Part shown: positions 47,400-49,560 of the stretch, one piece after another | Layout of the letters: every line of letters begins with the position of its first letter | Position numbering within the stretch: the first letter of the stretch is position 1 | Virus record (IMG/VR): IMGVR_UViG_2934336660_000001 | Coordinates: 1 to 64,000 of that record | Direction: 5' to 3' (one strand) | Source: a virus | Lineage: Duplodnaviria > Caudoviricetes | Length of the DNA stretch: 64,000 nucleotides | The notes under the pieces: model-generated | The model's database searches: none | The model's input: only the letters and a program-made list of their open reading frames with translations | What the model was told of the DNA's origin: nothing | Program-made: the position numbers and the translations under genes

Positions 47400-48272
47400 T
47401 CAGCCCTGGAGTCGCTTGGCGAGCGCGTCGGCGACCTGCTCGGTGAGGGCCTTGGGGATCGCCTCAGCGATGCGCTCCGGGGTCAGCCCGGCCAGCACCC
47501 CGGCAACGATCGCCGGCTCGTCGGTGAAGTCCTTCCCGGCGAGCCCGGTCAGCGCTGCCTGGATGGAGCTGAGCTGCGCCGCCATGGCCTTCAGGTTGTA
47601 GTTGCCAGCCACTGACGCCCCGGTGTCGTCCCGGCCGTCCGCGATCCGGGTGTAGATCTGCCCGATCGGGTTCCGGCCGTCCAGCACCGTGAGGTTCTTG
47701 TGGACGGTGGCCAGCCAGTTGTGCTCTTCCGGGGTCATGTCGTCGTCCTCCAAGAGTCCAATGGAGCTGAGGTAGCGGCGGAACAGGGGCCGCTGGTCGC
47801 GGCCGGCCTTGATCGCGTCGCGAAAGAAGCTGAAGTGGGTGTGCCAGCGGTGTGAGCTGTCGCCGCTGGTGCGCCGGCCGAGGCGGTCCCACCGCTTCAC
47901 CGTGCTGCCGTCGGGGCTGTAGATGATCTCCCGGATGTCCCGGGTGTCGGCCGCGCCCGCCGCGCACTGGCCCACGCACCAGAGCGAGAAACTGGGCAAG
48001 GTGTGGATCCGCCCGCCCGACGTGACGTTGAACTGGCCGACGTCCAACGCCGCCGCGTCCAGGGTCAGTCCGGCCCTGTCCCGGGGTGACTCGACCACCG
48101 AGTAGTCGCCTTCGACCACCCGGTCCGAGCCGCAGTGGTAGCCGCCTCGGTGAGCTGCATTTCCGACGATGCCGACCTCTGCCGGCTCTAGATCGTCGGA
48201 TCCGGGAGCGTCGTCTAGGTGATCAAGCAGCAGCTTGCGTACCGCCATCAGGTTGGCGGGCGCTCTGGTCAT
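47400..48272 (-). CDS. Endolysin (Zn-peptidase, M15-like)
   Basis: GGYH...AAALDV...SHRWHTHFSF motif set; sits between tail genes and holins. Confidence 0.7.
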   Translation of the reverse strand: MTRAPANLMAVRKLLLDHLDDAPGSDDLEPAEVGIVGNAAHRGGYHCGSDRVVEGDYSVVESPRDRAGLTLDAAALDVGQFNVTSGGRIHTLPSFSLWCVGQCAAGAADTRDIREIIYSPDGSTVKRWDRLGRRTSGDSSHRWHTHFSFFRDAIKAGRDQRPLFRRYLSSIGLLEDDDMTPEEHNWLATVHKNLTVLDGRNPIGQIYTRIADGRDDTGASVAGNYNLKAMAAQLSSIQAALTGLAGKDFTDEPAIVAGVLAGLTPERIAEAIPKALTEQVADALAKRLQG

Positions 48273-48834
48273 TGGTGCCCCCGTTCCGTCGTGCCTCGTA
48301 GCGGCGCTGGTTGTTGACCTTGCACTTTCGGCACTGCCGGCTCTTCCGCCCGCCAGTCTTGAGCTGGAAGTACGTGTTCTCCGGCGTGTACTCGTGGCCG
48401 TTCTTGCAGTGCGTGACCGGACCACGTGGCTCGGCAGGCACGTAGCGCGATCGGTTGTCCTCGCGGGTGCACGTGCGGCAGCCGGGGCGGCCCGAGAAAT
48501 ACCGGTTCTCCGACCGGCGGTGACCGCGCAGGCAGTAGAGGCTGCGCGACCGGCCCATCCGGCGCAGGTTCTCCTGCCGGCTGACCGGCTCCAGGTGGTC
48601 GGGGTTGACGCACCGGCGGTTCACGCACAGGTGGTCCAGTTCAAGCTGGTACGGGACCGGGCCGACCAGCAGTTGCCAGGCGAACCGGTGCGCTCCGACG
48701 GTTCCAGCGCCGGAGTTGAACGTGCCGTAGCCGTCGGAGTTGACGCTGGCGATCCATTCCCAGCAGACGCCAGAGGTGTCGACCTTGACCCAGAAGCGCT
48801 GCACGACTCGTGGCGACACCGTGGCGACGGTCAT
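48223..48834 (-). CDS. HNH homing endonuclease with C-terminal Zn-finger repeats
   Basis: RFWVKV..CWEW..GYG..AHR..LDHLCVNRRCVNPDHLE..EN; CLRGH..CRTC; CKNGH..CRKC. Confidence 0.9.
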   Translation of the reverse strand: MTVATVSPRVVQRFWVKVDTSGVCWEWIASVNSDGYGTFNSGAGTVGAHRFAWQLLVGPVPYQLELDHLCVNRRCVNPDHLEPVSRQENLRRMGRSRSLYCLRGHRRSENRYFSGRPGCRTCTREDNRSRYVPAEPRGPVTHCKNGHEYTPENTYFQLKTGGRKSRQCRKCKVNNQRRYEARRNGGTNDQSARQPDGGTQAAA

Positions 48835-49184
48835 CGGACGTGCTCCCCGTACCCGTCGTTGCTGCACCCGCACGGGAGGTAGCCCCAGCGCCAACCTTTT
48901 GGCGCGCCACAAGCGGGCGGGTTGTCCATGTGGGTGCGCTCGGGGTTCGTCTCGTCCGGCTGTGTCGCAGGTGCGGGCGCGGTCACGAGCTGGCCCTTCG
49001 CGACCTCTTGGGTGCGTACTTTGCGGCAGGCAGCGCAGTGGATCCCAGGCGTCGGCTGTTCAACTGATTCAAGCGGGCCGTCGTAAAAACCGACGCGGCT
49101 GCAAAGTGAAGCGTTGTCGCGGTAATAGTGAGAGCGGCGTTCAAGCGGATGAATGTCGCCCCAACCCTCGGTCAAGCTGCGCAT
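48831..49184 (-). CDS. Hypothetical Zn-binding protein coupled to the HNH gene
   Basis: HYY...SLC...CAAC; GAAGGGG RBS; ATGA overlap. Confidence 0.6.
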   Translation of the reverse strand: MRSLTEGWGDIHPLERRSHYYRDNASLCSRVGFYDGPLESVEQPTPGIHCAACRKVRTQEVAKGQLVTAPAPATQPDETNPERTHMDNPPACGAPKGWRWGYLPCGCSNDGYGEHVR

Positions 49185-49198
49185 CTCGGCCCCTTCCG

Positions 49199-49251
49199 AT
49201 GGTGGATATCCACCACTGTACCGAGGACTGGACGTGGTGGATATCCACCAC
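49199..49251. promoter_or_regulatory. Two copies of palindrome TGGTGGATATCCACCA
   Basis: 49200-49215 and 49235-49250, between divergent starts. Confidence 0.85.
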
Positions 49252-49264
49252 CGATACTCAGCGC

Positions 49265-49450
49265 ATGCCCAAAGACAGATCCGAAGACCGGCACACCAAC
49301 CCAGCCCACGTCATCCGACCGAACCCGCCTGAACTGTGGGAACGGCTCGGCGAAGCCGTGGGCCCGCGCAACCGCAGCGCCACCGTCTCCGACCTCATCC
49401 GCCGCTACCTCGACGGCGAGGCCATGCCCGAGAAGCCAGCCCGCAGCTAG
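49265..49450 (+). CDS. Ribbon-helix-helix repressor
   Basis: DRHTNPAHVIRPNPPELWERL...RSATVSDLIRRYL. Confidence 0.7.
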   Translation: MPKDRSEDRHTNPAHVIRPNPPELWERLGEAVGPRNRSATVSDLIRRYLDGEAMPEKPARS

Positions 49451-49560
49451 CCGACGATGCCGACCTCGTCCGGGTCCAGGTCATCCGGGCCGGGGGCGTT
49501 GTCGAGGTGGGTGAGGAGCAGGCTGCGGGCGGCCAGCAGGTTGGCGGGGGCGCGGGTCAT
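49447..49560 (-). pseudogene. Truncated original 5' end of the endolysin (37 aa)
   Basis: MTRAPANLLAARSLLLTHLDNAPGPDDLDPDEVGIVG* aligns to the endolysin N-terminus MTRAPANLMAVRKLLLDHLDDAPGSDDLEPAEVGIVG; GGGAGG RBS. Confidence 0.85.

Follow-up and report, generated by a model that had tools for sequence, protein, structure and literature searches.

A displaced lysin start beside an HNH nuclease gene: a probable free-standing homing element in a prophage of a Micromonospora-like genome

Introduction

Why should a phage lysin gene have two beginnings, one in use and one broken off, with a nuclease gene lying between them? This question is raised by positions 47,400 to 49,560 of a 64,000-nucleotide (nt) stretch of viral DNA (hereafter the window; IMG/VR record IMGVR_UViG_2934336660_000001, positions 1 to 64,000), which corresponds to C1:243681-307680 of a 7.57-Mb, 36-contig, high-GC, Micromonospora-like genome and whose genes have their closest named relatives in Micromonospora. 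The original prediction, made from the sequence itself, held that an HNH nuclease cassette had entered an endolysin gene without splicing and had supplied it with a recoded, cleavage-resistant 5' end. The analysis presented here suggests that the locus probably harbors a free-standing HNH homing-endonuclease element of the 'replace-the-target' kind, residing in a prophage lysin gene. Read along the direction of lysin transcription, such a unit would comprise the dead codons 1-37 of the resident lysin; a ribbon-helix-helix-like (RHH-like) gene, two operators, a cysteine-rich open reading frame (ORF117) and the HNH gene; foreign lysin codons 1 to about 46; and the body of the resident lysin.

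Origins of the two lysin 5' ends

The anatomy of the locus agreed with the original prediction in its coordinates, its strands, the duplicated 5' end and the genes lying between the two copies. The full lysin-like gene (47400..48272, minus strand) encodes 290 amino acids (aa) and was assigned by its lysis-cassette position. When its product was searched against the whole genome, a 37-aa open reading frame (ORF) at 49447..49560 (minus strand) was recovered as a partial match to residues 1-39, with 74% identity, one TAG and an E value of 1.5e-11. This ORF, consisting of 37 codons plus TAG, has its own ribosome-binding site, with a start codon located 10 nt past the stop of the upstream SGNH gene and 4 nt past a GGGAGG box. 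The whole-genome search and a codon alignment identify it as a dead lysin 5' end. The dead and working copies share 84 of 111 nt, and their codons differ synonymously in 12 cases and non-synonymously in eight.

The codon alignment included 34 homologous genes, namely the genome's own paralogue, genes from 29 genus genomes, one from genome G055, two from IMG/VR contigs and one from phage pMLP1. Mean nucleotide identity of the working gene to these homologues was 73% over codons 1-37, 75% over codons 38-46, 84% over codons 47-120, 90% over codons 121-200 and 73% over codons 201-288, whereas the 37 codons of the dead copy averaged 85% (maximum 90%). Because this family identity of 85% resembles that of the lysin body (84-90%) rather than the 73% of the working end, the dead copy reads as the resident sequence. 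The GC content at third codon positions (GC3) agrees with a resident dead copy and a foreign working 5' end: over codons 1-37 it was 0.97 in the dead copy and 0.70 in the working copy, compared with 0.76-0.95 in 31 homologues, and within the working gene it was 0.67 over codons 1-45 vs 0.94 in the rest. The comparison thus upholds the proposal that the cassette inserted into a resident lysin along with a foreign 5' end, the original 5' end remaining as a remnant (85% vs 73% nucleotide identity). The sequences indicate that the dead copy is the native lysin 5' end and that the working 5' end, up to about codon 46, is foreign, forming an imported replacement at 48135..48272 (minus strand) whose variant N-terminus recurs in the lysins P0122-P0124.

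Homing endonucleases encoded by group I introns or inteins occur in phage lysin genes, where the gene is kept functional. The window differs in having neither a ribozyme nor an in-frame intein, its lysin gene being restored at the DNA level rather than by splicing. The HNH gene is a separate ORF in a frame different from that of the lysin, housed in neither an intron nor an in-frame intein, and a search for intron RNA returned zero Rfam matches at E<=1 across 47000-50600. The locus therefore gives no sign of an intron, in line with the original prediction. Programmed splicing or bypass that would join the 37-aa ORF to the lysin body was also considered and rejected, as no RNA family matched and the working gene is complete by itself, with a start codon and the whole of the conserved N-terminus.

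The junction and its substitution cluster

Both copies were originally described as ending in the same 17-mer, GAGGTCGGCATCGTCGG. This 17-mer does occur in the window only at 48163-48179 and 49451-49467 (two matches in 0 of 100 shuffles), but it is not specific to the insertion, because 27 of the 34 family genes carry an exact copy; it marks a conserved coding block (EVGIVG) rather than a repeat made by insertion. The replaced tract, moreover, does not stop at the 17-mer and runs to about codon 46. The 17-mer is part of a block conserved at 90% or more, GAGGTCGGCATCGTCGGCGAC..CACCG.GG.GGCTACCACTGCGG, which encodes EVGIVGD..HRGGYHCG and contains invariant His and Asp residues.

Within this block, codons 37-42 of the working copy (48147..48164, minus strand) form a cluster of substitutions, in which 7 of 16 nt are off consensus (GGA AAT GCA GCT CAC CGA vs the family consensus GGC GAC CCG GCC CAC CGG), and the gene is identical to the consensus on both sides. 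The GGA AAT GC portion also occurs in L175, a metagenome contig described below. The dead copy ends after codon 37, and the intact consensus block is present in neither copy, a loss that would be expected of a nuclease target. The cluster is accordingly a candidate resistance patch, and the matching consensus sequence in empty alleles is a candidate HNH target.

Rare codons in the working copy had been put forward as the resistance-conferring change. The low GC3 of codons 1-45 (0.67) bears out the unusual codon usage itself. However, the odd codons among codons 1-17 (AGA, GTA and CTT) are dictated by the overlapping HNH reading frame, the stretch being 50/50 nt identical in L175, and thus do not reflect recoding against cleavage. 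The cluster at codons 37-42 may be regarded as a better candidate for a resistance patch than these recoded codons.

Linkage of the HNH gene and spread of the variant N-terminus

The last 16 codons of the 203-aa HNH_3 nuclease gene (48223..48834, minus strand; Pfam HNH_3, E 1.3e-13) and the first 17 codons of the lysin gene are read in different frames from a 50-nt dual-coding overlap (48223..48272, minus strand), the HNH stop sitting 50 nt into the lysin gene. A degenerate pattern for variant residues 7-21 retrieved a single metagenome contig, L175 (3409 bp); the same kind of pattern found none in IMG/VR contigs. L175 begins within an HNH gene; the encoded protein matches the window HNH at 94% identity over its final 65 residues, and the gene overlaps a variant-type lysin start exactly as in the window, with 50/50 identical nt in the overlap and 138/148 in the HNH part ahead of it. 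The lysin body that follows is 76% identical at the protein level and precedes related lysis genes. For the closest full-length HNH relatives, known as protein only, back-translations of the HNH tail were checked for the family lysin N-terminus in the shifted frame. Two of these proteins, P0002 and P0003, are labelled by their sources Micromonospora humidisoli (TPA0907_55930) and Micromonospora sp. NPDC053740, respectively. The tails of P0002 (74% identity) and P0003 (66%) were compatible with an overlapping lysin N-terminus at 16/16 positions, a score reached by 0/2000 shuffled tails for each of them (maximum 14 and 13, respectively). These sequence matches argue that the HNH gene and the replacement 5' end are inherited together.

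To see how widely the variant N-terminus occurs, 5.8 billion proteins were searched, with scoring on lysin residues 1-60, and the best 120 of 533 hits were compared. Among these 120, the variant N-terminus LMAVRKLLLDHLDD...GNAAH was present in four lysins, i.e., the window lysin, P0122, P0123 and P0124 (MTRAPANLMAVRKLLLDHLDDAPG..GNAAH); P0126 was intermediate, and the remaining listed lysins had the common form ..LLAVRSLLLTHLDNAPGPDDLDP.EVGIVGD[PS]AH, as in the dead copy. The four variant lysins share 93-100% mutual identity in residues 1-42 and only 60-77% in the body, and the nearest relative of each variant body among the listed hits (77-88%) has the common N-terminus. A maximum-likelihood tree was built from 49 lysin bodies, comprising the four variants, P0125, P0126, every third remaining sequence and the nearest relatives. 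The variant label needs four changes on this tree, and an approximately unbiased (AU) test on these 49 of the 120 sequences rejected monophyly of the four variant bodies (delta lnL, the difference in log-likelihood, 181; p 5.6e-8). The N-terminal tree groups the four variants, a circular result since the group is defined by its N-terminus. Phylogenetic comparison therefore suggests that the replaced end and the rest of the lysin gene have discordant histories across alleles, with the variant N-terminus joined to four or more lysin lineages. Among annotated proteins of 30-158 aa, one short lysin-start fragment was retrieved, truncated by the end of its contig; because the collection lacks the 37-aa ORF of the window itself, this search is uninformative on other dead copies.

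A second nuclease-and-stump locus

A related arrangement is found in another genome, G174 (G174:C3; L049 2335-3819). There, a 37-aa ORF stands right after the SGNH gene and matches, at 72-81% identity, the initial 37 residues of proteins of 278-319 aa encoded at eight places in six other genomes. Next to this stump, on the opposite strand, comes an HNH gene whose product is about 40% identical to the window HNH, and then a lysin that combines a third kind of catalytic domain with the same C-terminal region as the window lysin. The stump belongs to a second lysin family, which is homologous to the window lysin from its residue 38, equivalent to window residue 31 (hhalign probability 99.3%), and the G174 fragment ends exactly where this homology starts. 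Taken together with the dead copy of the window, the G174 stump indicates that two related prophages carry a lysin 5' stump beside an HNH gene at the same place.

Genetic setting and cassette proteins

The cassette stands at the late end of a siphophage-type prophage. On the minus strand, virion genes for the tape measure and minor tail proteins follow one another up to an SGNH/GDSL hydrolase gene at 50428-49571 (49571..50428, minus strand; Pfam Lipase_GDSL_2, E 2.5e-15), which is preceded by a tail protein gene matching phrog_1885, and small membrane-protein ORFs (47371-47162, 47162-47061 and 47064-46723) follow the lysin gene. Between the dead copy and the nuclease operon lies the 61-aa RHH-like gene (49265..49450, plus strand), which is divergent from that operon. 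Its TAG and the TAG of the dead copy overlap on opposite strands in GCTAGC (49444-49452), so that the left edge of the cassette coincides with the end of the RHH-like gene, leaving zero spare bases. Two 16-bp palindromes, TGGTGGATATCCACCA, which are presumed to be operators, are located between the divergent genes at 49200-49215 and 49235-49250 (unstranded). They are followed by ORF117 (48831..49184, minus strand; 117 aa), whose stop overlaps the HNH start (ATGA). A sigma-70 promoter scan gave zero sites, and two terminator-like sites on the plus strand inside the HNH gene were no more than expected by chance.

The HNH protein matches phrog_826 (E 8.5e-55) and the PADLOC model 'homing endonuclease' (E 3.1e-6), in addition to Pfam HNH_3. 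Residues D67, H68, N72, H80 and N89, which we take to be a candidate catalytic motif, are invariant in 6/6 aligned relatives. Downstream of the nuclease domain, residues about 100-190 (48223-48530) contain two C-x2-GH...N-x-Y...CR-x-C repeats, presumably zinc-ribbon DNA-binding modules, and the G174 HNH shares the same repeat layout. A structure model of the HNH protein had a mean predicted local distance difference test (pLDDT) score of 58.9 and was not used for fold search.

The RHH-like ORF has a GC3 of 0.84 in frame and 24 relatives of similar length at E<=1e-3. The original prediction of an RHH repressor with a double operator held for the pair of palindromes, as the palindrome TGGTGGATATCCACCA has only two copies in the 7.57-Mb genome (reversed control, 0), and received some support from the family profile, which matches the RHH domain of NikR at E 0.009. 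However, the window protein alone had no Pfam hit at E<=10, and a Pfam RHH_1 match (E 0.0035, below the cut-off) was obtained for 1/25 family members. A 42%-identical relative in L177 (G098:C3, about 1719-1790) has three TGGATATCCA palindromes in its divergent promoter region, pointing to an operator core conserved beyond the window cassette; the relative in L178 (G227) has two GTGTAGCTACAC sites upstream, and upstream extensions of the relatives P0242 and P0260 read 'VDIHH', the translation of the same palindrome. From these sequences, a self-regulating RHH-type repressor with palindromic operators is plausible. The RHH-like repressor may be a separate module, because its relatives in G098 and G227 have no HNH gene nearby. 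Another relative, the 143-aa P0253, is fused to an N-terminal Endonuclease VII domain (Pfam, E 2.2e-12), implying that the small DNA-binding domain also serves as the targeting part of a nuclease.

ORF117 (GC3 0.73) was weakly matched by phrog_2358 only (E 1.3e-5) and had no Pfam, NCBIfam or PADLOC match; its former description as a Zn-binding ORF has nothing behind it beyond the cysteines. Protein atlas look-ups for the RHH-like protein and ORF117 provided no usable lead, and PADLOC on the three cassette proteins gave no defence model beyond 'homing endonuclease' for the HNH. The lysin itself had no Pfam, PHROG, NCBIfam or PDB sequence match and no Foldseek match at E<=0.001. Its AlphaFold2 model (mean pLDDT 73) was placed by VIA-align closest to the C-terminal domain of VldE, a zinc L,D-endopeptidase, in a weak match (Z 5.2, root-mean-square deviation 3.5, 93 residues aligned) tied with unrelated rows. 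The invariant His and Asp residues of the lysin are H41, H46, D50, H141, H144 and H146. In the window, L175 and pMLP1, the gene is located after the tail genes and before small membrane-protein ORFs. The endolysin label thus stands mainly on gene position together with the weak fold match to VldE, and finds no counterpart in a family match.

Cassette-free relatives and the chromosomal paralogue

Intact lysins following directly on tail genes are present in distant relatives. In G055 (L062), an intact full-length lysin begins at a GTG that overlaps the SGNH stop (SGNH 58% and lysin 78% identical to those of the window), and in phage pMLP1 a tail gene abuts an intact lysin with 59% identity. Cassette-free arrangements are known only from such distant relatives, and no near-identical empty allele of the prophage was found. 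A search for lysins in IMG/VR found only cassette-free or distant genes. No cassette-skipping joint was found in two sequencing runs, of which one is the likely source and the other holds only identical 151-nt pieces of low depth.

The lysin family is present in 239 of 275 genus genomes, mostly as a single copy. The genome of the window has a second copy on contig C8 (187057-187929; L003 1501-2382), which is 82% identical and lies in a non-phage context, flanked by a hydrolase-like gene and an ArsR-like regulator and outside any obvious prophage. The lysin-like gene may therefore be a domesticated lysin, or a host cell-wall enzyme borrowed by phages. Over nt 136-252 of the window lysin (48021..48137, minus strand), starting directly after the substitution cluster, 116/117 nt are identical to the C8 paralogue, and over the next 400 nt of the alignment identity is roughly 80-97% per 60-nt block. 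This tract looks like a recent gene-conversion tract between the prophage and the host gene.

A proposed homing element and its alternatives

From the layout of the locus we infer target cleavage and its site, resistance of the rebuilt gene, a homology-arm role of the fragment and repression of the operon by the RHH-like protein. In the homing reading, which we consider probable, the HNH protein would cut or nick cassette-free lysin alleles in the conserved block encoding EVGIVGD-x-x-HRGGYH, and the break would be repaired from the filled allele. With the lysin body providing homology on the right and the dead 5' fragment on the left, the whole cassette would be copied in. The recipient's 5' end would then become the new dead fragment, and its gene would be rebuilt with the donor 5' end, which is off consensus exactly at the junction and should escape cutting.

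Several observations weigh against this interpretation. The searches found no isogenic empty allele of the prophage; across 274 other genomes of the genus, the top lysin is 84% identical. The element is rare, with a best HNH relative of 52% identity in the same 274 genomes, 47% in species-representative genome contigs and 52% in IMG/VR. The left junction with its dead fragment is known from the window only, as L175 ends inside the HNH gene, and the HNH relatives P0004-P0006 lack a compatible tail. An uninvaded paralogue with an intact consensus block is present on C8 in the same genome, indicating either that the nuclease is silent or inactive in the lysogen or that the C8 sequence is not cut. 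In addition, the window lysin is clearly mosaic, and if the HNH gene stayed in place and lysin bodies were exchanged behind it by ordinary recombination, the N-terminus and body trees could be just as discordant. The comparison, moreover, covered lysins selected for similarity at the N-terminus, of which only 49 of the 120 entered the tree.

The alternative that survives best, although we regard it as rather unlikely, is a one-off mosaic junction, in which a long-standing block of RHH-like gene, ORF117, HNH gene and lysin start was moved by ordinary recombination with no involvement of the HNH protein. The right junction would stem from a homologous crossover in the conserved lysin block and the left one from an illegitimate join after codon 37, the dead copy would be a passive scar, and the HNH protein may have a different function or no function. 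Mosaicism is a feature of phage lysis genes, and the window lysin, with its 116/117-nt host-paralogue tract and a much more divergent C-terminal part, conforms to this; the single known left junction, the occurrence of the RHH-like family elsewhere without an HNH gene, the sensitive-looking but uninvaded paralogue in the same genome and the rarity of the element also fit such a history. However, the same N-terminus occurs on four body lineages and the HNH/lysin overlap persists at one further locus at least and probably at three; a mosaic origin therefore needs repeated transfer of the same small module. It also leaves aside the substitution cluster placed exactly at the junction of an otherwise conserved block, the intact state and normal codon usage of the dead copy, and the second HNH-plus-fragment arrangement at the same place in G174.

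An accessory module resembling a moron or defence system, in which the repressor, ORF117 and the HNH protein benefit the host or phage and the duplication is incidental, seems improbable. In its favor, one would sooner expect a repressor with two operators of its own in a moron than beside a homing endonuclease gene, ORF117 is unexplained, and one RHH-like relative is fused to an Endonuclease VII domain. However, PADLOC recognizes only a 'homing endonuclease' (the HNH) among the three proteins, the 50-nt HNH/lysin overlap is conserved elsewhere, and the presence of the variant N-terminus on different bodies is left unexplained. An assembly artefact, by which the duplication or the junction came from mis-joining the prophage lysin with the chromosomal paralogue, is very improbable. 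The source-run contigs do fragment at 47718-48117, where the paralogues are nearly identical, but one 35-kb source-run contig spans 48117-51000 without a difference and thereby covers the dead-copy/RHH junction as well as the HNH/lysin start, a 151-nt piece from a second run covers 49354-49504 without a difference, L175 independently has the HNH/lysin overlap, and only the middle of the lysin body is swappable. The depth of the source-run contigs doubles over 48030-48146. The second run, from another labelled organism, holds 151-nt contigs across 47053-50841 with a depth of 2-3 that are identical to the window, one of them crossing the junction of the dead copy and the RHH-like gene; these pieces probably stem from carry-over or from traces of the same strain and do not count as independent evidence.

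The homing interpretation can be carried further, to a self-contained homing unit in which the dead fragment acts as the left arm, the nuclease and the resistant start are locked by their overlap, and a private repressor silences the nuclease in the lysogen. We put this fuller version forward only tentatively and hold it to be doubtful as a whole. Under it, the nuclease and the resistance-conferring start would be inseparable by recombination because of the 50-nt dual-coding overlap, and silencing in the lysogen would matter because the host chromosome carries a sensitive target copy in the form of the lysin-like paralogue. If so, induction could convert co-infecting phages as well as the host's own gene, and the 116/117-nt tract shared with C8 would be a trace of such break repair. 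The three features of this unit may not have been described together before.

Comparison with known mobile elements

The closest counterparts appear to be the WHO elements of Torulaspora and Lachancea yeasts (Coughlan et al. 2020, PMC7282813), which provide a resistant replacement end, for which the old end is proposed as a homology arm, and in whose target genes the two parts yield discordant trees. As is proposed for the window, the endonuclease gene is free-standing and homes into a gene for a conserved protein with no splicing involved, one end of that gene is replaced by a resistant version (a candidate one here), and the old end is left as a fragment. However, WHO elements replace the 3' end and place the nuclease downstream, whereas the window element supplies a 5' end with start codon and ribosome-binding site and has its nuclease upstream; they encode an intein-like LAGLIDADG enzyme rather than an HNH, and they reside in the yeast nuclear genome rather than in a prophage. 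Further differences are that the window nuclease gene overlaps the replacement segment in a second frame and is accompanied by a repressor-like gene with operators, and that cleavage was demonstrated for WHO (PMC7282813), the window element being known from sequence alone.

The mobile endonuclease ORFs (mORFs) of fungal mitochondria (PMC3630166), which form hybrid genes with atp6 of Allomyces and with atp6, atp9, cox2 and nad3 of Glomus, show a similar logic, in that an endonuclease ORF brings a foreign gene terminus that takes over and the native terminus stays adjacent. Nucleotide identities to relatives in those cases are 91-98% for the native ends and 64-81% for the inserted ones, compared with 85% vs 73% in the window. 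In contrast to the window element, which replaces the N-terminal end, carries its HNH as a separate overlapping ORF and contains two further genes, mORFs are C-terminal, encode LAGLIDADG or GIY-YIG enzymes, are often in frame and belong to organelle genomes.

Among phages, the free-standing Seg and Mob endonucleases of T-even phages move by 'intronless homing' (review PMC2988022), and the HEG-islands of ICP1-like phages contain small fragments of essential cargo genes that were suggested to be recombination substrates (PMC10055350). These systems share with the window a phage-borne HNH gene outside any intron or intein, and they spread by break repair with co-conversion of flanks (PMC2988022, PMC10055350), as the window element would. 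In T4, mobE in nrdA and mobA in gene 60 each divide the host gene into two parts whose polypeptide products reassemble (PMC2988022), whereas the window fragment is redundant and the gene is rebuilt whole; PMC2988022 describes no duplicated replacement end, the stem 'duplicat' having 0 occurrences in that review. A literature search of main texts found no phage element described with a replacement 5' gene end; PMC10055350 does mention cargo-gene fragments in HEG-islands. As far as this literature goes, the replacement-end trick has been documented in yeast and fungal mitochondria and is mentioned only in passing for phages, and the window element is best fitted as a mirror image of the WHO and mORF logic, at the 5' end.

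Implications

The homing reading accounts for the short orphan ORF after the tail genes, and it carries a warning for annotation, as short gene fragments and odd codon usage at gene starts may mark nuclease-driven gene conversion. It would also supply a defined site open to experiment, a conserved block of roughly 30 bp in a lysin family that nearly all genomes of the genus possess, together with a natural pair of sensitive and resistant alleles within one genome. Because the idea of fragments as recombination substrates beside phage nuclease genes is already in print (PMC10055350), the gain would be a clear, dissected example rather than a new principle. If the homing reading is correct, a homing endonuclease invades an essential phage gene without an intron or intein by bringing a replacement start, and a mechanism proven in yeast and inferred in fungal mitochondria would be extended to a temperate actinophage.

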